Assembly (NCBI GenBank): GCA_020631905.1
Contig: JACKGQ010000001.1
Span: forward strand, 229,854-293,853
From: Candidatus Nomurabacteria bacterium
GTDB lineage: Bacteria; Patescibacteriota; Saccharimonadia; Saccharimonadales; VXPC01
Direction: 5' to 3'
Length of the DNA: 64,000 nucleotides
Under the pieces are notes generated by a model. That model did no database searches. It was not told the origin of the DNA and was given only the letters and a program-made list of their open reading frames with translations. Made by a program: the position numbers and the translations under genes. The stretch's first letter is position 1; every line of letters begins with the position of its first letter. Below, piece after piece: positions 1,391-52,404 of this stretch.

Positions 1391-1473
1391 AGTGTTATTG
1401 ATCATGAGAGTGGTCATGAATTTTTGACAATGTGTGAAAAAAAAGCCGCGGTTTTCCGGAGGTGTGTGTTTAA

Positions 1474-2280
1474 GTGGTTTTAACACAGACCCCCGGAAAG
1501 CCAACAGGCGGCTTACTTCTACCCGGGAAATTGATTGGAACTACTACAGCCATGACCATGACCATGACCGACTCGACCGTCAGCACCGACAACCTGCTCC
1601 AGCAGGTTGGTGCCATCACCAGCCACAAGTTCTACGAAGTGGTGATTGGCGATGCCAGGGTCATCCTGGACATCGCAACCATCCACGGGATCGGCAGCAG
1701 GCAGGACGCCAACAACGCGAATTCCATCTGCTGGGCCATCCGCGTGGCCGAAGGCAAGATCAACGCCCTCGAGGGCTTCTACCGCAAGGTGGAGGCCCAG
1801 CTGGCCGCGGTGCGCGAGCACCCACAGAGCGAGCACCTCTACGGGCGGGTCCGCGCCGACATCGACGCCGGCATGCCGGCGATCGGTCAAGAGCTTCAGC
1901 ACCAGCTGCAGTTCGCGCAGGAGAGGCTCTTGCCGGGCCTCGAGAAGCGCCAGGTCAGCCTGGACAAGGCCCTGCAGATCCTGGCGCGAGTGCGCCAGGA
2001 AGAGGCTTACGCCGACTTCGTGGACCAGCGCGGCCCGGCACCGGCCGAGTGCTTCGAGAACCTCGATGTTCTCTGGGCGCATCTCCACGCCTACAGGGAG
2101 TGGAACAGCGTTCTGCCCGACAACCCCGCCTTGCGGCACATGGGGCTCGACCCCAGTGTGACCCACCAGGGTCACCGGCCGCACAGCTCCGCCAGCCGGC
2201 GGGGTGCCGGTCCGCGTGACGACGTCCGCCCGAAGGCCCGCAACCCCAAGGGGAAGCGGGGCAAGGGGAACAAGCAGTAG
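1474..2280 (+). CDS. hypothetical protein, strongly G+C-rich ORF (island A)
   Basis: GTG start 11 nt after GGAGG (1459-1463); alternative ATGACC x3 start at 1551. This frame gives balanced amino-acid composition and G/C-dominated third codon positions. C-terminal tail is basic (KARNPKGKRGKGNKQ). No family recognised. Confidence 0.6.
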   Translation: MVLTQTPGKPTGGLLLPGKLIGTTTAMTMTMTDSTVSTDNLLQQVGAITSHKFYEVVIGDARVILDIATIHGIGSRQDANNANSICWAIRVAEGKINALEGFYRKVEAQLAAVREHPQSEHLYGRVRADIDAGMPAIGQELQHQLQFAQERLLPGLEKRQVSLDKALQILARVRQEEAYADFVDQRGPAPAECFENLDVLWAHLHAYREWNSVLPDNPALRHMGLDPSVTHQGHRPHSSASRRGAGPRDDVRPKARNPKGKRGKGNKQ

Positions 2281-2309
2281 CCGCCAGGCCAGGGCTTAAG
2301 CCAAGGGTG

Positions 2310-2364
2310 GGAGAGGTGCGACAAGTAGGCATTTGTCTACTTGCTAAGAGCGCAATACCTCTCC
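2310..2364. terminator. nested hairpin between convergent genes
   Basis: Outer stem GGAGAGGT (2310-2317) / ACCTCTCC (2357-2364). Inner stem CAAGTAG (2322-2328) / CTACTTG (2337-2343). Lies between the ORF A stop and the stop of the minus-strand gene at 2436. Confidence 0.4.
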
Positions 2365-2435
2365 TGCCCGGGGCAATCAACACACATTGTCACTTCACCA
2401 AAGGTTTTACTAGAAATTTAAAACTTTTGACGAAG

Positions 2436-3293
2436 TTAAAGAGTCAGACTAACACAGCGGATAAAACCACCGCCCTTAACTAGCTCGGTTACGTTCGGAC
2501 TAAGCACGTTGTAACCTCTATCACGTAACTCACTTGCCAGATTATGAGCGTGATTGCTCATAATTACGGTTTTTCCTGTACTAACTAGGTTGCACGCGAA
2601 ACCAGTTTTAGCTTCGTCGAAGCTAACCTCGATTTTATCAATATCTGTTAGTGCACGGATTTTGGCTTGGCTTTCGGGCAGCAAGGCATCCGGGCAATAC
2701 GCGATGGTGTGGTCGTCGATGACCGCAAGCGCAAGATCGAGATCGTAAAAGAAGCTATCTGGCCAGCCGGTGACCGGATTGATGACCGGTTGGTTGTCGG
2801 CACCTAGCTCTGGAATAGCTTGCACACCGATAACAGTTTTACCAAATTCGCGTCCGAGCATGTCGTGCACCTCGGGGCTGGTGCGGTACTGACTACCAAC
2901 AAAAATGTAGTTACCGCAGGGTAGGGCATCGCCCTGGCCACTAAAGTGGAGATCATCTGGCAATTTAACTGTCTCGAAACCAAGCTTTTGCAGCGTTTCG
3001 AGCGCATAGGGCTCTTCTGAGGCGCGTTGCTCTGGCAAATTACTCATGACTGCCTTATCGCCAATTACCAGCGCCCAGTTGGCCGTATAAACCCCGTCTT
3101 GGCTAGTAGGTGGTGCGGGTACTTGAATAACCTCTATACCAGCTTGCTCGAACAAACTTTTGATTTCGGCATGTTCGGCTTGGGCTCTGGCTAGATCGAC
3201 AGGCTTGGAGGCATCCATATGCGAGTTGATCGCGAATCCGTCGTTAAAGTAGTTGGCATCGGACATCAAGACGCGTTGGTTAATCAGACTCAT
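2436..3293 (-). CDS. guanidino-group-modifying enzyme superfamily protein (amidinotransferase/DDAH-like)
   Basis: 285 aa. C-terminal GGGFIRCVSLTL resembles the catalytic-Cys motif of the amidinotransferase/DDAH/arginine-deiminase fold. The size fits DDAH-like proteins rather than ArcA. Confidence 0.65.
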   Translation of the reverse strand: MSLINQRVLMSDANYFNDGFAINSHMDASKPVDLARAQAEHAEIKSLFEQAGIEVIQVPAPPTSQDGVYTANWALVIGDKAVMSNLPEQRASEEPYALETLQKLGFETVKLPDDLHFSGQGDALPCGNYIFVGSQYRTSPEVHDMLGREFGKTVIGVQAIPELGADNQPVINPVTGWPDSFFYDLDLALAVIDDHTIAYCPDALLPESQAKIRALTDIDKIEVSFDEAKTGFACNLVSTGKTVIMSNHAHNLASELRDRGYNVLSPNVTELVKGGGFIRCVSLTL

Positions 3294-3644
3294 AGAAAAG
3301 TAGTATATAGGCCGAAGGCCTTAGGGGCTAGTTTTAAGGAAAGCAAAGCATTAAATCTTTACTAATATTTTCAAGAAAGCAAAGCTTTCCATCTCACTCT
3401 TCTATTTTTGAAGAGACCAAAAACAGAAGCAAAAAAAGTCTTCCCAGCCACCCAAACATCCAGACTATCAAGCTTACAGCTCTTAAATCTGGTAACTTGC
3501 GGAACTTGCTGGCAAAGCCAGCTGCATACAGTCCTCGTTACCATACTTAAGAACTACAAGCTTGCTAATCTCGAGTTTGGGTGATGCTGGATATACAAGA
3601 CCGACAGACATCTAATATCCGAGTTCTAAGATCTATCTCATATC

Positions 3645-3680
3645 AATAAACGAGAAAACCCCGAGCCCCTGAGAGGGCTC
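3645..3680 (-). terminator. rho-independent terminator of G+C-rich ORF B1
   Basis: On the minus strand, stem GAGCCC-TCTCAG-GGGCTC is followed by GGGGTTTTCTCGTTT, directly after the stop at 3693. Confidence 0.55.
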
Positions 3681-3692
3681 TAGGGCTCTCGA

Positions 3693-4127
3693 TCAGAAGC
3701 TCGGGGTAGTTGCCCCAAGTCGACGTCGCTCGAAGCGTCGCCGTTTTCCATGTTGCGAGCCATGCATTTCGCAGGTGTGCTGCGGGTTGGCTTCTGTCAG
3801 CCAGTAGCAGAGCAGAAGCTGCAGGAACTCGCACGACCGTCGTGTCAGCAACTGCTCGGGGCAGTTACGATCCAGGCTGGTCACGTAGTAACCAAAGGAA
3901 TCTTGGTTAACCAGTAGCGAGTGATGAACTTCACCACTCAGATCGGCCAAAACCCGAAGGTCTGGTAGCTGGCAGTTGGAGTTCAGCCGGATGCGAAGGT
4001 AACCACCTGGCGGTGTATACTTGCCGGCGAGACTCACCGTCCGGTTGTCGAAGTGAATGGTAGGAGGTAGGTCGGTAGCAGACATGTCGAGCATTTGGAG
4101 CGACAGTCTGTTGAGGGTCGGGCTCAC
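3693..4127 (-). CDS. hypothetical protein, G+C-rich ORF (island B1)
   Basis: GTG start preceded by AAAGGA. 144 aa with a Cys-containing, Arg-rich C-terminus. Has its own promoter and terminator. No family recognised. Confidence 0.55.
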   Translation of the reverse strand: MSPTLNRLSLQMLDMSATDLPPTIHFDNRTVSLAGKYTPPGGYLRIRLNSNCQLPDLRVLADLSGEVHHSLLVNQDSFGYYVTSLDRNCPEQLLTRRSCEFLQLLLCYWLTEANPQHTCEMHGSQHGKRRRFERRRLGATTPSF

Positions 4128-4161
4128 TTGAGATCCTTTGTTGGCGTGTGGGACGAACGAC

Positions 4162-4190
4162 TATTATGCCAAATTTATTGATAATGTCAA
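4162..4190 (-). promoter_or_regulatory. sigma70-type promoter for ORF B1 (TTGACA-N16/17-CATAAT/ATAATA)
   Basis: Minus strand reads TTGACATTATCAATAAATTTGGCATAATA, in a short AT-rich gap between two G+C-rich ORFs. Confidence 0.55.
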
Positions 4191-4195
4191 CCCAT

Positions 4196-4227
4196 AAAAG
4201 CGGAAACCCCAGGCTACTTGCCTGGGG
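4196..4227 (-). terminator. rho-independent terminator after ORF B2 and its tRNA-like 3' element
   Basis: Minus strand: CCCCAGG-CAAGTAG-CCTGGGG followed by TTTCCGCTTTT. Confidence 0.6.
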
Positions 4228-4271
4228 CGTTGTAGTGCGGAGCGACGGCTCGACGCACAATTCAAAAGGAG

Positions 4272-4360
4272 AAGGTTCGAAGTGGGCGAACCCGGGTTTG
4301 AACCCGGACCGAGGAAACCTCGGTGTATTGGCGGTTAATCCGCCCACTACTCGAAACCTT
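4272..4360 (-). other. tRNA-like structured element (acceptor-like stem plus T-arm-like hairpin plus extra hairpin); not a canonical tRNA
   Basis: Minus strand starts 3 nt after the ORF B2 stop. Acceptor-like pair GTGGGCG/CGCCCAC is extended to about 17 bp. Hairpins are CCGAGG-TTT-CCTCGG and TCCGGG-TTCAAA-CCCGGG (T-loop-like). No D-arm or 7-nt anticodon loop can be drawn. Confidence 0.4.
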
Positions 4361-4363
4361 GAG

Positions 4364-4807
4364 CTACTCCGACATCGCGGGCGGCAGCCCCGCCTCGTGG
4401 GTGGCGTACCACTCACGGTGGGGATCGATCACCCCAGGCTCTTCAGAGTTGTTGCCATCTTCGATCAGGCCGAGACCCTTCGGCCAAGTCCTGATCAACC
4501 CCACGATGGTTGCGATGACCTCCTGCTCCTTCCGGGTTGAGGCGTCCGTGACGGGCGCATCGTGGGCTCCGAGCAGGATTTTCACCGTTGCGGTGTCCGG
4601 GTAGTAGACCCAGTCGTCAGCGCTGATGCCGGCGACTTGACCCATGTCGGCAATCAGCTGGTCGAGGCCGGCAGATGTCAACGGCTGGAAGAACTCGATC
4701 TCGCCGAAGTGACTGTTGGGATGGACTGCAATTCGCAACCAACCACAGCCGTCACCAAGCGTGGTGAGCTCCCTATCCGAACCCTCAGTGAAGGTTGAAG
4801 GTTTCAA
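4364..4807 (-). CDS. hypothetical protein, G+C-rich ORF (island B2)
   Basis: TTG start 5 nt after AGGAGA. 147 aa with balanced composition. Has its own promoter. No family recognised. Confidence 0.6.
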   Translation of the reverse strand: MKPSTFTEGSDRELTTLGDGCGWLRIAVHPNSHFGEIEFFQPLTSAGLDQLIADMGQVAGISADDWVYYPDTATVKILLGAHDAPVTDASTRKEQEVIATIVGLIRTWPKGLGLIEDGNNSEEPGVIDPHREWYATHEAGLPPAMSE

Positions 4808-4851
4808 GGTGTCTCCTTGTAAAGGGCCCGGACTTGTTTCCGAGCTTGGGC

Positions 4852-4880
4852 ATCTTACACAATCTATATCACATTGTCAA
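4852..4880 (-). promoter_or_regulatory. sigma70-type promoter for ORF B2 (TTGACA-N17-TAAGAT)
   Basis: Minus strand: TTGACA (4875-4880), 17-nt spacer, TAAGAT (4852-4857). Confidence 0.6.
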
Positions 4881-14049: not shown

Positions 14050-14139
14050 AGGAGAGGTGTCCGAGTGGTTGAAGGAGCACGCTTGGAAAGCGTGTATGCG
14101 GGCAACCGTATCACGGGTTCGAATCCCGTCCTCTCCGCC
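14050..14139 (+). tRNA. tRNA-Ser (anticodon GGA), CCA encoded
   Basis: Acceptor GGAGAGG/CCTCTCC, anticodon arm CACGC-TTGGAAA-GCGTG, long variable arm, T-arm GGGTTCGAATCCC, 3' GCCA. Confidence 0.9.
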
Positions 14140-42375: not shown

Positions 42376-43977
42376 ATGGATCAAAATTCACCCAATCCTA
42401 AGCAACAAATAGTCGAAAAGCTAAAATCGTCCGAGAACGTTTTAGTAACTGTGAGCACTAACCCAAGTGTCGATCAGCTAGCAGCCGCCATAGGCATGAC
42501 CTTACTGCTAGACAAACTTGGAAAACGAGTAACCGCTGTCTATAGCGGAGAAACTCCAAGTACAATCGAATTTCTTAATCCAGAGGGAAATCTGCATAAA
42601 GGTATCGACAGCCTTCAGGATTTTATTATTTCACTCGACGCCAGTAAGGCAGACAAGCTGCGCTATAAAAGAGATGGCGATGTTGCAAAGATCTTTATTA
42701 CTCCCAATAAAATCGCGATTTCCGAAGACGACCTCAGTTTTAGTAAAGGTGATGTAAATGTCGACACTGTGGTTGCGCTCGGAGTTGATCAGCGCGAACA
42801 CCTCGATCAGGCGATAGTTGCCCATGGCCGAATACTCCACGATGCCAGTGTGCTGACTATGATGGCTGGCAATGCTACTAGTGATGTTGGATCAATCAAT
42901 TGGCAAGATCCGGCTGCTAGCAGTTTGTCGGAGATGATTGTTAGCATCAGCGAAGCTTTTCAGAGTGGTTTGCTTGATGCACAGATGGCAACAGCCTTCT
43001 TAACGGGCATTGTAGCCGAAACAGATCGGTTCAAGAATAGCAAGACCACGCCAAAAGTCATGACAATGTCGGCTCAGTTGATGTCGGCTGGAGCAAACCA
43101 GCAATTGATAGCCGATAATCTGAGTCAGCCACCCGTAGAGCCAGAAAAGACCGAACCAGAAAAGGTCGAACCTGAAGTTGCACCAGCAGAGTCAGAGCCA
43201 CAACAAGAGCAGCCGGAACAACAGTCTGCCGAAAGAGTCGATTTTAATAACGCACCTACCGAAGAAAAAAAGCCCGCCCAATCTTCTGATGTGCTGAACT
43301 TTAATATGCACGACATCGAAGGCAACGTGACTTACGGCGACGAGGCTGGCGGGGCCCAGAAGGCCAAAGCAGATGACGAAGTTGAGGTAGACTTACGTAC
43401 CGATCGAATTCATATCGATAACGAAGGCAATATGCAGGCCGTCGACAAAGAAAACCCCGATTCAAATTCGAGTGAAAATGCCGGTGTGTCCGAGAACCCA
43501 GCCAACCTTGGTCAAGCATCTACTGCAACTAGTCCAGAGCCCGAAGCCGAGAACCAGTCACCGGAAGCCGAACGTCACGCCGAAGGTGGCGAGAGCTTTG
43601 CTCTCAATAAGCGCATGAAGGTCATCCAACCACTACCACCAGAACCAGAAGAAAAGCCTGACGCAACATCTGCTCCAGAGGTGTCGGACAGGACAATCGA
43701 CGATATCGAGACTCGTATCCAGCAGAATAATATACCAGAAGCAGACCAGGCAGTCATCGAACCTGCGTTGCCGGTTTCCCAAGATAATGCTCGCGAACAA
43801 GTTTATGATGCAATTAAAGCCGATTTACCAAACGAGGCTCCAGAGCCTATCAAAGCCCTCAACGCAATGCCTCTTAACGAAGGTGATACCGAACCGTTAA
43901 GTGAGCCAACTCAGCCTCAAGTAGAGTCGACAGCACCACCGCTACCACCTCCGCCAATCGCTCCCGATGGCGCTTAA
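42376..43977 (+). CDS. DHH/DHHA1-like protein with long acidic low-complexity C-terminal region
   Basis: The N-terminal ~230 aa resemble NrnA-type phosphoesterases, but no DHH motif is visible. The C-terminal ~280 aa are E/P/D-rich. Confidence 0.45.
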   Translation: MDQNSPNPKQQIVEKLKSSENVLVTVSTNPSVDQLAAAIGMTLLLDKLGKRVTAVYSGETPSTIEFLNPEGNLHKGIDSLQDFIISLDASKADKLRYKRDGDVAKIFITPNKIAISEDDLSFSKGDVNVDTVVALGVDQREHLDQAIVAHGRILHDASVLTMMAGNATSDVGSINWQDPAASSLSEMIVSISEAFQSGLLDAQMATAFLTGIVAETDRFKNSKTTPKVMTMSAQLMSAGANQQLIADNLSQPPVEPEKTEPEKVEPEVAPAESEPQQEQPEQQSAERVDFNNAPTEEKKPAQSSDVLNFNMHDIEGNVTYGDEAGGAQKAKADDEVEVDLRTDRIHIDNEGNMQAVDKENPDSNSSENAGVSENPANLGQASTATSPEPEAENQSPEAERHAEGGESFALNKRMKVIQPLPPEPEEKPDATSAPEVSDRTIDDIETRIQQNNIPEADQAVIEPALPVSQDNAREQVYDAIKADLPNEAPEPIKALNAMPLNEGDTEPLSEPTQPQVESTAPPLPPPPIAPDGA

Positions 43978-44047: not shown

Positions 44048-44881
44048 ATGGAATTAGACAGAATCTTACTAATTGATAAACCTCAAGGTTGGACATCGTT
44101 CGATGTTGTCGCCAAAATTCGTGGCTCTATGCAAAATAAGTACAACTTGGCTTTGCGGGATACACCCGAGCTTTGTGGTTGCGAAGAGTGCAAGGCAGAA
44201 GTGAAGCGCAGAGCAAGCCTTACATCAGTAAGGCGCGCGAGCACTGGAACTTCTAACGCGGCAATCACGCACCAGACGACTGGGAATGATCAGATTCATT
44301 CTGATTATCCAAGGCGTCGACACAAAATTCGGGTGGGTCACACAGGTACATTAGACCCTATGGCTACGGGTTTGCTGGTGATTGTGACTGGCAAGAACAC
44401 AAAAATGGTCTCCGAGATGATCAAGCACGACAAAACCTACGAGGTCGAACTAACTTTGGGTTCGATAAGTGACACAGGTGATGCCGAAGGTAAGCTGACC
44501 AATCTAAATAAGCTTGTACCAGATGCACTGGCGGTAGACGAAGCAGTCTTAAGTTTTGTTGGCGAAATTATGCAGACACCGCCCGCTTATTCGGCGATAA
44601 AGATTAACGGCAAGCGGGCTTATCAGCTAGCCCGAGAGGGCAAAGAAGTAAGGTTAGAGCCACGCAAAGTGAACATTTACTCAATCTTAGACATAAAGTA
44701 CGAGTATCCAGTAGTAAGTTTTGTGGCCGAGGTGAGTAGTGGCACCTATATTCGCTCACTGGTGCAAGATATCGGCCAGATGCTTGGCACAGGTGCTTAC
44801 ATGAGTGGCCTCAGGCGCACCAAAGTCGGCGAATATGATATTGATGACGCCACAGAACCTGAATCGCTTGAGCTTGCATAA
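44048..44881 (+). CDS. truB: tRNA pseudouridine(55) synthase TruB
   Basis: LLIDKPQGWTSFDVV and GHTGTLDPMATG (catalytic Asp). Contains an insertion of about 67 aa between these motifs. Confidence 0.9.
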   Translation: MELDRILLIDKPQGWTSFDVVAKIRGSMQNKYNLALRDTPELCGCEECKAEVKRRASLTSVRRASTGTSNAAITHQTTGNDQIHSDYPRRRHKIRVGHTGTLDPMATGLLVIVTGKNTKMVSEMIKHDKTYEVELTLGSISDTGDAEGKLTNLNKLVPDALAVDEAVLSFVGEIMQTPPAYSAIKINGKRAYQLAREGKEVRLEPRKVNIYSILDIKYEYPVVSFVAEVSSGTYIRSLVQDIGQMLGTGAYMSGLRRTKVGEYDIDDATEPESLELA

Positions 44882-44910: not shown

Positions 44911-45810
44911 ATGAGTGCAAGAAGCCGTCATACACCTACTTTGAGTGGCAGACTAGATATGGTCTTCCCGAATGACCCGATGTCCGAGGCCCGTAGCAGT
45001 GGGCGAATGGTGGTTCAGGAATTTACCTGGGGCGATGCATTGAGTAAAGTTGTCGAACAACTAGATATTAGCGTAGCAGATGCCCTAAAAATGCTCGGCA
45101 TATCTTTGGAGACCGTCCAGAACAGTGGCGTGATCAAGCTGACCGATGGGGCATATGCCGAATATCAGGAAGACCGGGTCGATGAACTGGCTAGAACAAT
45201 CGCTACGCAGATACAGCCAGAAATCGAAAGAATTGGGTTGCGATTCGAGGAGCTTAAGGCTGGTTGGCGTGTTGAGGAGGATCGTCTGGATAGCTACCAA
45301 AAACTAGCTGAGATGCTCCTAAATTATGCTAGTGAGACAGATAATCTGCATGAAGACCTTAACTCTCAAGCAAGACATTTTCCACCTCGCACAGCTCTAA
45401 GATATGCAATTTATGAACTCAGGGATTTTAATGACGATCTTCAGGCTAGACTCCGGGATATGGCCGGTCGCTTAGAAAAAAGTGCACACCTACTATCGTT
45501 AGCCGATCTGGCGACAGGTGTACTTGAAGCCGGTCTCTCAAGTTCTTACGGACAACTAATTACCTCTAGGGCTCTAGCTTCGACCATAGAAGCTATTTTG
45601 CAGGGGCATCGTTACGACGTTTCGCGCGTCTTGGTTGATCGACTTCTGGTTGGTGACACTCAGCTAGATGTTTTTAGGAGACAACTACGAACCGAAGCAT
45701 ATGAGTACTGCTTGGCCGAAGCTCGAGACAGGTGGCAGCAGGTTGCCGAAGTTGTCTTTCTAGCCGAAGATCCATACTACTTAAGAGTTAAAAACGGTCA
45801 AGAACAATAA
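44911..45810 (+). CDS. hypothetical protein (299 aa)
   Basis: Long helical-looking ORF. No motif recognised. Confidence 0.55.
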   Translation: MSARSRHTPTLSGRLDMVFPNDPMSEARSSGRMVVQEFTWGDALSKVVEQLDISVADALKMLGISLETVQNSGVIKLTDGAYAEYQEDRVDELARTIATQIQPEIERIGLRFEELKAGWRVEEDRLDSYQKLAEMLLNYASETDNLHEDLNSQARHFPPRTALRYAIYELRDFNDDLQARLRDMAGRLEKSAHLLSLADLATGVLEAGLSSSYGQLITSRALASTIEAILQGHRYDVSRVLVDRLLVGDTQLDVFRRQLRTEAYEYCLAEARDRWQQVAEVVFLAEDPYYLRVKNGQEQ

Positions 45811-45816
45811 AATAAC

Positions 45817-45845
45817 TTGCATAATATTTACACATATGTTATAAT
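45817..45845 (+). promoter_or_regulatory. promoter TTGCAT-N17-TATAAT driving the G+C-rich non-coding locus
   Basis: TTGCAT at 45817-45822, exact 17-nt spacer, consensus TATAAT at 45840-45845. Confidence 0.65.
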
Positions 45846-45852
45846 GATGTAA

Positions 45853-46410
45853 TCAACCTGAGGTGAGGTGTTTAACCCCTTGAGTTGAACATTTACAATC
45901 AGGTACTAGAAAAAAAATCGCGGTGGCGAGGCAGACGACGGTGTTGGATTACCGTATGGCGCCTTAGCCCCAGTTGGCATGTTGCAAGCAGCAATTCTGC
46001 AGCGTCATCTGACGTGCACCACATTTGTTGGCCGGCAAAGATTAGCCGGACTTGCCAAACTTCTCCGAGGTGCGCGTCGCGTGCTTTGGGGTGCGTGCGG
46101 GCTCACCCGCAACCGAATGGGCGATGCCGGATCCGCTGGCCGCCGAATAGACCCTAGTGAAAGGGGTAAGCTGTGGTCCCACCGGGCCTCTAGGCCGTAC
46201 CGGTCCAAGATGCTACCACCCGAAAGGGGGAGCTATATCAGACTGGTACGGCTATCTTCAGTCAAAATCTGGTGCTCCGCTACAGGCTTGCGTCCACTAC
46301 GTGGCCACCTGGGGCGGAGCACCGAGACCCAATGAAAACCGCCGCCCCGACCTCGTGCAATCGGCCGCAAGGCAGCATGGGGTCGGGGCACAGGTTATCT
46401 AGTACCTGAA
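45853..46410 (+). ncRNA. candidate large structured ncRNA, class unassigned
   Basis: Consensus promoter upstream. An 11-bp closing inverted repeat (45899-45909 / 46399-46409) encloses a core of about 61% G+C. The core has perfect 9-13 bp helices and GNRA loops on the + strand. Only R/W/C-rich overlapping ORFs are present. Confidence 0.55.
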
Positions 46411-46457
46411 TTTCCACTAAATCTTAAAAGAGTTAAGGTTTGATGGAGATTAAATAC

Positions 46458-46485
46458 TTGCCACATCTGTTATTTGTGGTACAAT
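46458..46485 (+). promoter_or_regulatory. rpsO promoter TTGCCA-N16-TACAAT with TG extension
   Basis: TTGCCA at 46458-46463 and TGgTACAAT at 46477-46485. Confidence 0.6.
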
Positions 46486-46554
46486 TTAGGCTAACGCCAT
46501 CACTCTTATCTGAATAATTAGAAGAGTACAAAGTAATAAAGGAGTAATACCTGC

Positions 46555-46821
46555 ATGATTTCAGCTGATAAGAAAGCTAAAACCATCAAAGCCCACGCCC
46601 GCAAAGATAGCGACGTCGGCTCACCAGAAGTTCAGGCAGCTGTGCTGACAGAACGCATTAAAGAAGTTACTGAACATCTTAAAGTTAATAAAAAAGATAA
46701 TATGGCTCGCCGTGGTCTGCTTCAGATGGTCGGCAAGCGACGTCGATTATTGAGCTACTTGGCCCGCAAAGATGCTGCTGGCTACCAAGCTTTGATTAAA
46801 AAGCTCGGCATTCGCAAGTAG
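46555..46821 (+). CDS. rpsO: 30S ribosomal protein S15
   Basis: 88 aa. [48 protein letters not shown]. Confidence 0.97.
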
Positions 46822-46992: not shown

Positions 46993-49110
46993 ATGGATAT
47001 TATCAATCCTAAAGGCGACAAGACTTTACGTGTAAGTACAGAATTTTGTGGCCGCGAATTAAGCCTAGAAGTTAACCGTTTGGCTTTCCGCTCGGAGGCT
47101 GCCGTCTTGGTAACTTACGGCGACACTGTTGTGCTTGGCAACGTCAATGTTGGCGACCCGATTTCGGGTATGGACTATTTTCCGCTTACAATCGACTACG
47201 AAGAGCGCTTTTATGCAGCCGGCAAGATAAGTGGCTCGCGCTACATTAAACGCGAAGGTAAGCCAAGCGACGACGCTGTGCTTATCGGGCGACTTATCGA
47301 TCGGCCAATTCGACCACTGTTTCCGAAAGGTTATCGTAACCAAGTGCAGGCAGTAGCGACTGTCTTGAGCCTCGATCCAGAGGTTCGACCAGACGCTGTA
47401 GCCATGATTGCCATCAGTACCGCCATGACACTAACCGGAGTGCCGTTTGACGGCCCTGTAGCTGGAGTGCGTGTTGGTTTGGTTGATGGCAAGCTAGTAG
47501 CTTATCCAAATACCAGCGACATCAAGACAAGCGATCTAGATATTATGGTTGCTTGTGTCAAAGACGGTGTAATGATGGTCGAGGCCGGGGCAAACGAAGT
47601 TAGTGAGGCGACAATCGTCGAAGCTATGGAGGTTGCGCTAAAGGCCGTACAACCAGTCCTCGAGCTGCAAACCAAACTAGCCAAAGATCTAAAAGTTCAG
47701 GCTCAAGAATACGAGCTGTTGCTGCCAGATGCCGATATCGACGAAGCTGTAACCGACTTTTTGAAGGGTAAACTAGGCGATAAGGTCCAAGGTGGTTACT
47801 TTGAGCGCAAAGCTAGCTTAGACGAATTACGTCAGCAGATGGTCGACAAATTTAGTGCCGATTTAGGTGAAGATGCATGGGGGGCTGTAAAAGGTCAGTA
47901 TCTCGATGCTTTCGAACTAATCGTTAATAAAGATGTTCGAGAACAAATTATTACCAAAGGCGTGCGCCCCGATGGCCGCGAACTTACCCAGGTTCGACCA
48001 TTAAGCAGCCAGGTAGGTGTATTGCCGCGAACTCACGGCAGCGCCATTTTTACTCGTGGTGTAACCCAGGCGTTAAACATTACAACCTTGGCGCCCCTAT
48101 CTTACACACAAGCGGTTGATACAATGGAAAAAGACGAAGAGCGACGCTACTTCCATCACTACAATGCCCCTGCCTATACTTTAGGCGAGACTGGCCGTAT
48201 GGGTAGCCCAGGCAGGCGCGAGATTGGCCACGGTTATTTGGCCGAGCGAGCGGTTAGCCCGATGCTTCCTAGTGAAGAAGATTTCCCATATGCAATCAGA
48301 ACAGTTACCGAGATTATGAGCCAGCATGGTAGCACCAGCATGGCCGCTACTTGTAGTAGTGTACTTAGCCTGATGGATGCCGGCGTGCCTCTAAAGCGGC
48401 CAGTCAGTGGTGTGGCTATGGGTCTGATTATGGATGGCAAGAAGCCGGTTGTGCTAACCGATATTCAAGATGCCGAAGACTTTGCTGGTGATATGGACTT
48501 TAAAGTCACTGGCACCACCGAAGGCGTAACCGCCCTACAGATGGACATGAAAGTTCATGGCCTGCCAGTCGATGTATTAGCTAAAGCCATTGAACAGGCT
48601 AAGCAAGGCCGCGCCGATATCTTGGCTCACATGCTCAGCGTGATCAAGGCGCCACGAGCCGAACTCAGCCAATATGCACCACGTGTCGAAACCATCAAGA
48701 TTAATCCAGACAAGATCCGCGATGTGATTGGCAAGGGTGGCGAAACCATCCAGAGGATTATTGCCGAAACAGGTGCCGATATCGACATCAAAGACGACGG
48801 CACAGTCTTCTTAGCCAGCAACGACGGCGAGATGATGGCCAAAGTTAAGCAGATGATTGCCGACCTAACCGAGGAGCCAGAAGTTGGCAAAATCTACCGC
48901 CAGCGTCCGGTTGTTAAGGTGATGGATTTCGGGGCATTCGTAAATCTCTTCCCAGGTACCGACGGCATGGTTCACGTGAGTGAAATGGCCGAAGAGAGGG
49001 TTGAGAGCCCAAGCGATGTAGTTAAAGAAGGTGATCTTGTCGACGTTAAACTGATGGCGATTGACGACCGAGGACGACTTAACCTAAGCATGAAGAAGGC
49101 CAAAGGCTAG
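46993..49110 (+). CDS. pnp: polyribonucleotide nucleotidyltransferase (PNPase)
   Basis: 705 aa. Two RNase PH domains, KH (IGKGGETIQRI) and an S1 domain. Confidence 0.98.
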   Translation: MDIINPKGDKTLRVSTEFCGRELSLEVNRLAFRSEAAVLVTYGDTVVLGNVNVGDPISGMDYFPLTIDYEERFYAAGKISGSRYIKREGKPSDDAVLIGRLIDRPIRPLFPKGYRNQVQAVATVLSLDPEVRPDAVAMIAISTAMTLTGVPFDGPVAGVRVGLVDGKLVAYPNTSDIKTSDLDIMVACVKDGVMMVEAGANEVSEATIVEAMEVALKAVQPVLELQTKLAKDLKVQAQEYELLLPDADIDEAVTDFLKGKLGDKVQGGYFERKASLDELRQQMVDKFSADLGEDAWGAVKGQYLDAFELIVNKDVREQIITKGVRPDGRELTQVRPLSSQVGVLPRTHGSAIFTRGVTQALNITTLAPLSYTQAVDTMEKDEERRYFHHYNAPAYTLGETGRMGSPGRREIGHGYLAERAVSPMLPSEEDFPYAIRTVTEIMSQHGSTSMAATCSSVLSLMDAGVPLKRPVSGVAMGLIMDGKKPVVLTDIQDAEDFAGDMDFKVTGTTEGVTALQMDMKVHGLPVDVLAKAIEQAKQGRADILAHMLSVIKAPRAELSQYAPRVETIKINPDKIRDVIGKGGETIQRIIAETGADIDIKDDGTVFLASNDGEMMAKVKQMIADLTEEPEVGKIYRQRPVVKVMDFGAFVNLFPGTDGMVHVSEMAEERVESPSDVVKEGDLVDVKLMAIDDRGRLNLSMKKAKG

Positions 49111-50319: not shown

Positions 50320-52404
50320 ATGAATCAAAATCCTAACCAGCGTCCAAGACAAAACAATCGGCGCCCAAATCAAAATCGACAACCTAACCAAAAGAACCAA
50401 GCTCAGAAATCCGGAGAACAAAGTAACCGGAGTCAGGCTTTAAGTTTAAAAAATTCAGAAACAAGCCGTGGACAAGCTATTCGAGCTTCGCGACGAAGTC
50501 GAGATTTAGCCGACAAAGTCCTAGATGGCGCAAACTTAGCCGATCAAAACAGCACGCGAAAACGAGCCAACCTATTGCCTATAAAGAACGAGAATAAACT
50601 TAGAGTTACGCACCTTGGCGGTCAAGACGGTATCGGCGAAAAGAACATGATCGTTATCGAGTATGGCGACGAAGCTATCGTTACCGACTGCGGTAATGAG
50701 CTTGGTCTAGATTTGCCTGGCATTAACTACTCTGTTCCAGATGTCAGCTATTTAGAGACTATCAAACACAAGATTAAGGCATATGTGATTAGCCACGGTC
50801 ACCTTGACCACATTGGTGGTTTACCGCATATATTGCCAAAGTACCCGGCACCAATTTATGGTTCGATATTTACAATTGGTATGGTTCAGAAAACTCTTGG
50901 TAATCATCAAAATACAGCCGATATCTTAGACGAGTTCAGTTATAACGAAATGAATATGGATAATCATGAAAGACTGATGGTCGGTAAGCATTTTACAATC
51001 GAACTTGTGCGAATCACACACTCTATACCAGAGAGCAGCCTGATAGTTGTTGATACACCGCTTGGTCGAGTGATCAACACGGGTGATTTTCGTCTTGACC
51101 CAGAGCCGCTAGACAGCCGCCCGAGTGATCTTGAGCGGATTAAAGAACTCGGTAAAGACGGCGTTTTGCTACTGATGAGTGATAGCACAAATTCACAGCG
51201 CCCAGGTCGCACACCTACCGAACATACACTTCAAGATAGCTTCCACGATGTCATCAAGAATGCTCCCGGACGTATCATGGTGGCCAGTTTTTCGAGCAAC
51301 ATTAACCGCGTCCAAATGATTATAAATAGTGCTAGCGAAGCTGGCCGAAAAGTAGCTATCGATGGTCGAAGCATGATTCAACACGTCGAACTTGCAGTTA
51401 AACTTGGCTTGCTCCGAGTGCCTAAAAATACGATCGTGGCGATGGCTCAGGCCGTCAACCTACCAGATGAAAAGGTCTTGGTAATGTGTACTGGTGGTCA
51501 GGGAGAGAACGGGGCAGCTCTGCCACGCATGAGTATTGGCGAACACAAACACATCAAGCTACGTGAAGGCGACACTGTTGTAATTAGTTCGACCCCAATT
51601 CCAGGTAACGAAGTCGCTTATGAGCAACTTGGCAACGATTTGATTAAGCTTGGTGTTTTCTTGTTTAGAGCACCTACATGGGAAGTTGATGGCTGTAGCG
51701 GTCCACTTCATGTTTCTGGACATGCTTTCCGAGATGAGCATAAAGATATGATCGAAATGTGTAAGCCAAAGTACTTTACGCCAATTTATGCTGGCGCCTT
51801 TAACCGCAAACATCATCAAAATGTTGCAATCGAAATGGCTACGATGCCGCGTGATCGAACTTTTATGGTTGATAATGGCGATGTGCTCGAGATTGACGAG
51901 AATCTGGCTGCCAAACTCCACAAAGACGCTGTTAGCCATGGCTCGGTGTTAGTCGATGACTCTGGCCAGACAGTGCCTAGCGTAGTCGTTAAAGATCGCT
52001 TGCTCTTAAGCGAGACTGGCCTAGTAGTAGTTGTGCTTACAATCGACCGCCGTACTGGTGGGTTACTGACCAGCCCAGACATCATCACCCGAGGTTTCAT
52101 TTATATTCGTGACAACGAAGAGCTAATGAATCTATTCCGCGGCGAACTACGTCGGGCGGTATCTCAGCGCTACAAGCGCGTCGATCTAGATCGCTTTAAA
52201 GCCGAGCTCAAAGATCATGTTACTCACTTCTTGTTCGATCAGACCCAGCGAAGCCCGATAGTAATACCAGTCATCAACGTCGTTGGAGGCCGTAAGGGCT
52301 CTGACGGCAAAGAACAGCCAGCAACTAACAAAGACGTCGAAGACCAGCAGAAACGTTTTGCCGAGCTGCGGGCAGCTATCCGCAGCCAAGACCAACGCGA
52401 TTAA
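50320..52404 (+). CDS. rnj: ribonuclease J with Q/N/R-rich N-terminal extension
   Basis: HGHLDHIGG metallo-beta-lactamase motif and beta-CASP architecture. The first ~70 aa are NQNPNQRPRQNNRRPNQNRQPNQKNQ... Confidence 0.93.
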   Translation: MNQNPNQRPRQNNRRPNQNRQPNQKNQAQKSGEQSNRSQALSLKNSETSRGQAIRASRRSRDLADKVLDGANLADQNSTRKRANLLPIKNENKLRVTHLGGQDGIGEKNMIVIEYGDEAIVTDCGNELGLDLPGINYSVPDVSYLETIKHKIKAYVISHGHLDHIGGLPHILPKYPAPIYGSIFTIGMVQKTLGNHQNTADILDEFSYNEMNMDNHERLMVGKHFTIELVRITHSIPESSLIVVDTPLGRVINTGDFRLDPEPLDSRPSDLERIKELGKDGVLLLMSDSTNSQRPGRTPTEHTLQDSFHDVIKNAPGRIMVASFSSNINRVQMIINSASEAGRKVAIDGRSMIQHVELAVKLGLLRVPKNTIVAMAQAVNLPDEKVLVMCTGGQGENGAALPRMSIGEHKHIKLREGDTVVISSTPIPGNEVAYEQLGNDLIKLGVFLFRAPTWEVDGCSGPLHVSGHAFRDEHKDMIEMCKPKYFTPIYAGAFNRKHHQNVAIEMATMPRDRTFMVDNGDVLEIDENLAAKLHKDAVSHGSVLVDDSGQTVPSVVVKDRLLLSETGLVVVVLTIDRRTGGLLTSPDIITRGFIYIRDNEELMNLFRGELRRAVSQRYKRVDLDRFKAELKDHVTHFLFDQTQRSPIVIPVINVVGGRKGSDGKEQPATNKDVEDQQKRFAELRAAIRSQDQRD

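Follow-up and report, generated by a model that had tools for sequence, protein, structure and literature searches.

A candidate intervening-sequence-like insertion, structured and non-coding, in the rpsO leader of a Saccharibacteria genome

Intervening sequences (IVS) interrupt helices 9, 25 and 45 of the 23S rRNA in Salmonella, Campylobacter and Leptospira. The Coxiella IVS is 428 nt long (PMC4990558), and in bacteria of the candidate phyla radiation (CPR) insertions are numerous at the top or base of rRNA stem-loops, including short IVS-like ones in 23S genes, with long rRNA insertions being rare in Saccharibacteria, a reported exception among the CPR (PMC11270868). Patescibacteria often contain group I introns, not all of which are recognized by the Rfam model (PMC13011429). 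Here we describe a block of about 0.5 kb at positions 45899-46409 of a 64,000-nt stretch of contig JACKGQ010000001.1 (the whole stretch is referred to as the window), which lies between the genes truB and rpsO of a Saccharibacteria genome. With moderate confidence we read it as an orphan, lineage-specific, IVS-like structured insertion (~490 nt) in a long rpsO leader. Two promoters, P1 and P2, stand in tandem ahead of rpsO, and the spacer separating them contains a small ancestral hairpin whose tip the insertion would occupy.

A first-pass annotation of the window had taken the host to be a member of the Patescibacteria, and this is correct: the S15 protein and the neighboring ORFan protein map exactly to the Saccharibacteria metagenome-assembled genome GCA_020428525.1, as well as to a 770-kb contig. 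Five fetched loci (L081, L082, L084, L086, L087) from four records (NCBI GCA_020428525.1, Logan SRR12358676, Logan SRR27544760 and ENA ERZ27309388) contain the block at 100% identity, and because it recurs unchanged on contigs of several independent samples it is not an assembly chimera. Clustering of 15 billion proteins at 90% identity leaves the S15, PNPase and TruB proteins of the window as singletons, and a PNPase search identifies closer relatives at 85, 80, 77, 73, 70 and 69% identity. Relatives were compared at fetched truB-rpsO loci (3-12 kb each, mostly ~10 kb); the two that matter most are L088 and L089, with 85% and 80% PNPase identity respectively. The gene order in the window is truB (44048-44881), an ORFan (44911-45810), the block, rpsO and pnp, and the features between the ORFan and pnp that bear on the origin of the block are as follows.

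45817-45845, + strand: promoter P1, TTGCAT-17-TATAAT, with TGT as an extended -10 (read in the sequence; alignments)
45853-45888, + strand: 5' leader hairpin A, between the predicted P1 transcript start (~45852) and the closing stem (folds)
45899-45910, + strand: 5' arm of the closing stem, UCAGGUACUAGA, the outer CAG of which corresponds to the CAG at the base of the L089 hairpin
45911-46397, + strand: core of 487 nt, putatively inserted (composition, folds, repeat scans)
46398-46409, + strand: 3' arm of the closing stem, UCUAGUACCUGA, of which ACCTGA, like everything downstream, is homologous to L089
46411-46455, + strand: hairpin B, between the block and P2 (alignment with L089, folds)
46458-46485, + strand: promoter P2, TTGCCA-16-TACAAT, with TG (consensus scan, alignment)
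46492-46554, + strand: rpsO 5' leader, beginning with conserved TAACGCCATC (alignments)
46555-46821, + strand: rpsO, encoding ribosomal protein S15 (ORF calls, domain search), with pnp next at 46993-49110

The block is missing at the syntenic site in the relatives with 85, 80, 77, 73 and 69% identical PNPase; the 70% relative (L096) is uninformative, its contig starting 84 nt upstream of rpsO. In close relatives the distance from truB to rpsO is 145, 205 or 85 nt, or else unrelated small open reading frames (ORFs) come between the two. Alignment with L089 shows what occupies the homologous place. There the order is P1 over the truB stop codon, the start AATCAACC, a small hairpin, a 45-nt hairpin, P2 and the leader AACGCCATC. 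The small-hairpin element is CCAGTCTAG-CGGGC-TCGT-GCCCG-CGAACCTGAATTTCCAC, and its RNA, CAG-UCUA-GCGGGC-UCGU-GCCCGC-GAAC-CUG, is predicted to fold with CAG and CUG paired at the base and, above them, a 6-bp stem with a UCGU loop. Thus, where the window carries a 12-bp stem and a 487-nt core, L089 carries a 6-bp tetraloop hairpin, and nucleotide homology between the two starts again at 46404, within the closing repeat and six bases short of its end. Hairpin B (45 nt) is kept in L089 (1355-1395) with compensatory changes (AAAUCUUAA/UUAAGGUUU in the window vs AGGCCUUAA/UUGAGGCUU in L089) and is missing in L088, in which P1 is followed by ~35 nt and then by P2. Hairpin A has no counterpart in L089. 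P1, the CAG/CUG stem base, hairpin B, P2 and the rpsO leader are therefore common to the window and L089, and by PNPase identity L089 falls outside the pair formed by the window and L088, which argues on these alignments that the frame is older than the core.

The simplest history would be that the window's lineage gained the core after splitting from L088, and that L088 lost the spacer by deletion. The core junctions are ACTAG/A and T/CTAGT, and removal of the core leaves a perfect 18-bp palindrome, TCAGGTACTAGTACCTGA, which would fit insertion at the central CTAG; the removal would join GGTACTAG to TACCTGA in the DNA and GGUACUAG to UACCUGA in the RNA. No terminator-like site was found between the block and P2, and the core would be transcribed from P1 together with rpsO-pnp, forming the 5' portion of a long leader and folding as an autonomous domain with both of its ends paired in the 12-bp stem. 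The paired ends would restore the old hairpin geometry and leave P2 and the canonical leader untouched, which would account for the insertion being tolerated. The block thus has the IVS-type traits of replacing the tip of a hairpin that is short in L089 and of having complementary termini that form a stem, and it departs from the type in lying between truB and rpsO rather than in an rRNA gene. The data do not call for a cellular function; should the block have one, it would most likely be to act as a bulky 5' structure that slows 5'-end-dependent decay of P1 transcripts, and we note that the window contains an RNase J gene (50320-52404). The core is probably of foreign origin. The G+C content of the block and the presence elsewhere in the window of genes with 90% third-position G+C make a foreign source plausible, and high-G+C Actinobacteria are known hosts of Saccharibacteria.

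The block is unusual in its structure and composition. Its closing repeat, TCAGGTACTAG, which the first-pass annotation had described as a perfect 11-bp inverted repeat, occurs exactly twice in the 64 kb (45899-45909 on the + strand and 46399-46409 on the - strand), where shuffles expect 0.02 occurrences; it extends to 14/15 and yields the 12-bp RNA stem with a pair probability of 0.98. The long internal helices noted earlier were all recovered by repeat search and folding, with 13 bp (including 2 G.U) at 46193-46205 / 46241-46253, 11 bp at 46271-46281 / 46313-46323, 15 bp at 46344-46358 / 46375-46389 and 5 bp at 46032-46036 / 46045-46049, and a further helix of 13 bp at 46063-46075 / 46079-46091 contains 5 G.U pairs, for which reason its hairpin is specific to the + strand. 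The core begins with A8, is bounded on both sides by CTAG, and contains about ten hairpins, among them the following.

46063-46091, + strand: hairpin with 13 bp, including 5 G.U
46193-46253, + strand: 61-nt hairpin with a 13-bp base and a GAAA tetraloop (46222-46225)
46257-46336, + strand: 80-nt hairpin with helices of 11 and 4 bp
46337-46396, + strand: 60-nt hairpin with a 15-bp helix and a GCAA tetraloop (46367-46370)

Of the bases of 45899-46409 (core and closing stem), 70% are paired in the minimum-energy fold. The folding z-scores on the + strand are -7.5 (45852-46440, 589 nt, 100 shuffles) and -10.6 (45899-46409, 511 nt, 30 shuffles), compared with -4.5 and -3.9 on the - strand and +0.1 and -0.75 for native coding controls, and the minimum energy is -249 kcal/mol on the + strand vs -226 on the - strand, a difference of 23. 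By these model predictions the block folds far better than its shuffles do, and best on the + strand, in agreement with the helix-dense, + strand reading of the first-pass annotation. The GNRA loops that had been cited in favor of that orientation are present and point the same way, but they make up only two of 12 predicted hairpin loops and the argument from them is weaker than was supposed. The block is also G+C-rich, as had been reported, at 0.57-0.63 across 45900-46400 (~60% for 45899-46409) vs 0.47 for the window. A cluster of repetitive extragenic palindromes (REP/BIME type) was ruled out, there being no similar repeated units within the block, and no direct or tandem repeats were found in it.

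That the block is non-coding, as first annotated, is clear. It has no three-base G+C periodicity (p=0.25), where the ORFan (p=6e-9) and the gene at 1474-2280 (p=3e-27) do, and no gene is called over it in the source annotation. One frame is open for 141 codons (45910-46332), and this open frame is what could be said for a protein-coding gene or a pseudogene; its second-position G+C is 0.60, it has no Pfam match, and there are no homologues among 5.8e9 proteins or, by a full HMMER search, among 1.84e9 cluster representatives, translated open frames having been used so as to catch spurious ORF calls over homologous RNAs. A recoded gene was ruled out as well, all three kinds of stop codon occurring in five frames and the open frame having a non-protein composition. 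Together with the identical sequences in independent assemblies from different samples, which speak against an artefact of assembly, the lack of periodicity and of homologues effectively refutes the coding, pseudogene and artefact explanations, and we regard them as exceedingly improbable.

The clean helices raise the question of whether the block is instead an independent functional large non-coding RNA (ncRNA) of a new class, an ornate RNA of ~0.55 kb made from its own promoter P1 and acting in trans. P1 (TTGCAT at 45817-45822, a 17-nt spacer, TATAAT at 45840-45845) has a perfect -10 hexamer preceded by the TGT of an extended -10, as this explanation would have it, and the hexamer was correctly located in the first-pass annotation; "near-perfect" was an overstatement, the -35 matching TTGACA at only 3/6 positions (TTG), and it is for this reason that a consensus promoter scan missed P1. 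Nor did the promoter evolve for this RNA. P1 is homologous to a promoter that overlaps the truB stop codon in L089 and L088, its -10 region ATATGTTATAAT resembles the order-wide rpsO promoter pattern ATCTGNTANAAT, and by the alignments it is older than the core, as is the stem base. The lack of a terminator before P2 likewise fits poorly with a free-standing RNA gene; hairpin B, having no U-tract, is not an obvious terminator.

The very strong + strand folding signal, the GNRA loops and long clean helices, and a position outside both coding sequence and every Rfam family are what an ncRNA gene would predict. At gathering thresholds Rfam 15 matches only a tRNA-Ser in the 64-kb window, and at E<=10 across 45750-46560 the best match to the block is xerDC (18 bits against a gathering threshold of 72.5, E=2), so that its unassigned status stands. 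RNase P RNA (RF00010/RF00011), tmRNA (RF00023), signal recognition particle RNA (RF00169/RF01854) and 6S RNA (RF00013) give no match even at E<=10; ARAGORN reports no tmRNA, only the tRNA-Ser at 14051; the covariance models of OLE, GOLLD, ROOL, HEARO, raiA and other Rfam large RNAs give no match at the thresholds tried; and rRNA models have no match in the window.

Homologues were sought at the syntenic site and, beyond it, in Rfam, in phage and plasmid collections, by exact words in IMG/VR and JGI, and through protein-level proxies. The order-wide set consisted of 80 Saccharimonadales species representatives with PNPase 64-69% identical to that of the window; most keep the truB-rpsO-pnp order, with truB-rpsO gaps of 27 to 3174 nt in which G+C is at most 0.02 above the surroundings. 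The block has no nucleotide match in these 80 loci (blastn and nhmmer) or in 10 closer loci (blastn). INPHARED phages and PLSDB plasmids gave only two chance matches of 33-34 nt by blastn, six exact 18-22-mers found nothing in IMG/VR, one 26-mer found nothing in JGI metagenomes, and a leader-anchored degenerate pattern designed for further members of the sub-clade also found nothing there. The first-pass suggestion of a very divergent housekeeping RNA is thus rejected, the block being missing at the locus in the closest relatives and in 80 further species. The companion suggestion of a new large ncRNA class is unsupported. Two of the three outcomes that the first-pass annotation named as refuting it are seen, namely no homologues in these searches and no covariation, the block being a single sequence that offers no evolutionary evidence of function. 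With the block missing in all relatives examined, including those with 85% and 80% PNPase identity, and with no homologue in any collection searched, we consider an independent ncRNA gene unlikely.

The termini of the block invite a different explanation, that it is a non-autonomous mobile element targeting palindromes or hairpin tips, similar either to miniature inverted-repeat transposable elements (MITEs) or to ORF-less introns. Its exact 11-nt terminal inverted repeat is unique in the 64 kb, CTAG stands at both junctions within the repeat, and without the core the flanks form a perfect 18-bp palindrome; moreover, the hairpin-tip position is that of the CPR rRNA insertions (PMC11270868), and the intron-rich Patescibacteria include group I introns that the Rfam model overlooks (PMC13011429). 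The flanks outside the closing repeat, ATTTACAA and ATTTCCAC, match at 6/8 positions. For a mobile element, however, a single copy in the window and none in 97 other loci or in the phage, plasmid, IMG/VR and JGI probes is a poor showing, the outer half of the terminal repeats (CAG..., ACCTGA) is ancestral flank shared with L089, and there are no internal terminal repeats beyond the stem. Copy number and the ancestral flank in the "terminal repeat" are the grounds on which membership of the MITEs fails.

The intron-like version fares no better. Neither the group I model RF00028 (which misses some Patescibacteria introns, PMC13011429) nor any group II model (RF00029 and D1-D4) scores in the block at E<=10. 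Read by eye, the first ~60 nt of the core contain no complement to the upstream flank that could serve as a 5' guide, the 3' arm being the only complement; a G precedes the 3' core junction (CUAG/U). We regard group I membership as unlikely. For group II, the core ends on the + strand are AAAAAAAAUCG... and ...GGUUAU, rather than GUGYG...AY, and GUGYG occurs on neither strand; the GCCGUAC hairpin, at 61 nt with an unbulged 13-bp base, is unlike the 34-nt domain V with its 2-nt bulge. Saccharibacteria, moreover, rarely carry long rRNA insertions (PMC11270868). On balance a mobile element is distinctly unlikely.

The position of the block upstream of rpsO suggests a further explanation, namely a cis-regulatory domain of the rpsO-pnp leader, for example one to which S15, PNPase or RNase III binds or one selected as a 5' stabilizer. 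The block would belong to the 5' leader of transcripts from P1, no terminator standing ahead of P2, and the ACCTGA at 45857-45862 in hairpin A is identical to the six bases that end the 3' arm (46404-46409), which allows this segment to replace the 3' arm in pairing with the 5' arm. But P2, with its ATCTGNTANAAT -10 region, is the canonical rpsO promoter across the Saccharimonadales, and with the block upstream of it most rpsO mRNAs would lack the block; the closing stem would isolate the block from the leader; there is no Rfam match to an S15 leader; and the nearest relatives keep P1, P2 and the canonical leader without conserving the block. We find this explanation very improbable. The native rpsO leader is likely to be the separate TAACGCCATC element at 46492-46554, which is conserved immediately after the P2 -10 in 30 of 82 Saccharimonadales loci (L002, L009, L011, L018, L019, L028 and others), the loci without it having a near-leaderless rpsO. 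It matches no Rfam family and is a candidate S15 autoregulatory leader for the Saccharimonadales.

We therefore return to an IVS-like insertion as the favored reading, against which several points must be set. The helices are long and essentially mismatch-free and two of five tetraloops are GNRA; clean helices of this kind look like selected RNA rather than junk, and the insertion would thus have to be very recent or maintained by selection. No donor has been found, and it is composition that speaks for a foreign origin. A single gain, as opposed to two losses (in L088 and L089), is the parsimonious choice among three taxa, and the degenerate stem of L089 could equally be the relic of an older element that was deleted internally. 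The fold itself is predicted, as are transcription from P1 and read-through into rpsO.

These points leave some room, if little, for the block being the first example from CPR bacteria of a new kind of large structured RNA element, a doubtful proposition that could take the form of a trans-acting ornate RNA using an existing promoter, or of a mobile RNA or DNA element homing to hairpin tips, which could then act outside rRNA and tRNA genes; its relatives may be absent from, or too diverged for, exact-word and protein-anchored searches. If homologues exist, an RNA of 0.5 kb with clean helices in an epibiont genome of ~0.8 Mb would be a candidate for a new large RNA or a hairpin-targeting element, and the exact junctions make the question of new RNA or new element directly testable. 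If the block is only a passenger, it serves as a caution that a promoter-proximal, G+C-rich, helix-dense block in a small CPR genome need not be a conserved RNA gene, and it would mark the truB-rpsO spacer of Saccharimonadales as an insertion hot spot.

The latter suggestion draws on the ORFan between truB and P1 (44911-45810, 299 aa). Its composition is native and its codon periodicity clear. Neither 5.8 billion proteins nor the 80 Saccharimonadales loci include a homologue, and the protein has no Pfam, PADLOC, PHROG or NCBIfam match; a single-sequence AlphaFold model (pLDDT 47, all helices) is unusable. The gene is flanked by an exact 9-bp direct repeat, CTTGCATAA, at 44873-44881 and 45816-45824, the two copies forming the truB stop and the P1 -35. 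Because it carries this insertion signature of its own we treat the ORFan as a separate event and not as a partner protein of the block, and since the spacer would then have gained both, it appears to be an insertion hot spot; other relatives have unrelated small ORFs there.

Two genes upstream of the spacer also have lineage-specific features. TruB contains a 52-residue insertion (44147-44315, residues ~34-89), including CGCEEC, between its N-terminal motif and the catalytic HTGTLD, which is missing in three close relatives. Between rpsT and truB is a gene for a 533-aa protein with no Pfam domain (42376-43977), and syntenic proteins of 557-595 aa, also without Pfam domains, at L088 2045-3718, L090 1319-3106 and L095 485-2209 suggest that it is a conserved lineage-specific gene.

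A second G+C-rich, foreign-looking segment of this 47% G+C genome lies at 1434-4810. Its ORF at 1474-2280 (+) has ~90% third-position G+C and strong periodicity, and those at 3693-4127 (-) and 4364-4807 (-) are 54-60% G+C. None of the three has a Pfam, PADLOC, PHROG or NCBIfam match; 1474-2280 has no phage or plasmid match and 4364-4807 no phage match. The motif TTGACAATGTG at 1424-1434 (+) and 4870-4880 (-), and GTGACAATGTG at 2383-2393 (-), stand at the edges of the G+C-rich pieces, and the segment as a whole suggests a recent transfer from a high-G+C donor. A tRNA-like fragment at 4288-4352 (-), with an acceptor-like stem, a GGGTTCAAACCCGG T-arm and a 4-nt loop in place of the anticodon loop, is not called by ARAGORN and matches the tRNA-like mascRNA model weakly (25 bits, E=0.04); it may be the remnant of an integration site. 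A leader motif apparently shared by the block and the 1474-2280 gene was not significant, 7 of 300 shuffles being as good.

How, then, does the block compare with the systems it most resembles? Like MITEs and other non-autonomous insertion sequences it has 11-bp inverted termini, ~0.5 kb without an ORF and, at both junctions, a CTAG that may be a short duplication, but it differs in its single copy, in termini that are partly ancestral flank and that resemble the ends of no recognizable insertion sequence family, and in having far more RNA-like internal structure than transposition needs. With OLE, GOLLD, ROOL, HEARO and raiA it shares a length of ~0.5 kb, many helices, GNRA loops, non-coding character and a G+C content above the genome average, and it differs from them in matching no model, in being a single sequence and in being missing from the nearest relatives. 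The S15 autoregulatory leaders (RF00114 and relatives) also lie upstream of rpsO on the same strand; the block differs in lying upstream of the canonical promoter, in not being conserved and in matching no model. The group I introns and the rRNA and tRNA insertions of Patescibacteria come from the same superphylum, are similar in size (PMC13011429, PMC11270868), likewise sit at the stem-loop tips of structured RNAs and include ORF-less forms, but the block has no RF00028 match and, by eye, no guide pairing with its 5' flank, and its host is a leader, in which splicing is not needed. From the rRNA IVS it differs in its host, an mRNA leader between two promoters, in being far more branched than most (with about ten hairpins), in having no ORF, and in a 12-bp stem that is short for RNase III, excision by which is an IVS trait. 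In both, a hairpin that was already present has its tip exchanged for additional structured sequence whose ends pair with each other, the distribution is sporadic and lineage-specific, and the geometry of the host RNA is kept. If this comparison is apt, the block would be a clean natural case of an IVS-like insertion in an mRNA leader rather than in rRNA, with a relative still carrying the hairpin in its uninterrupted form.

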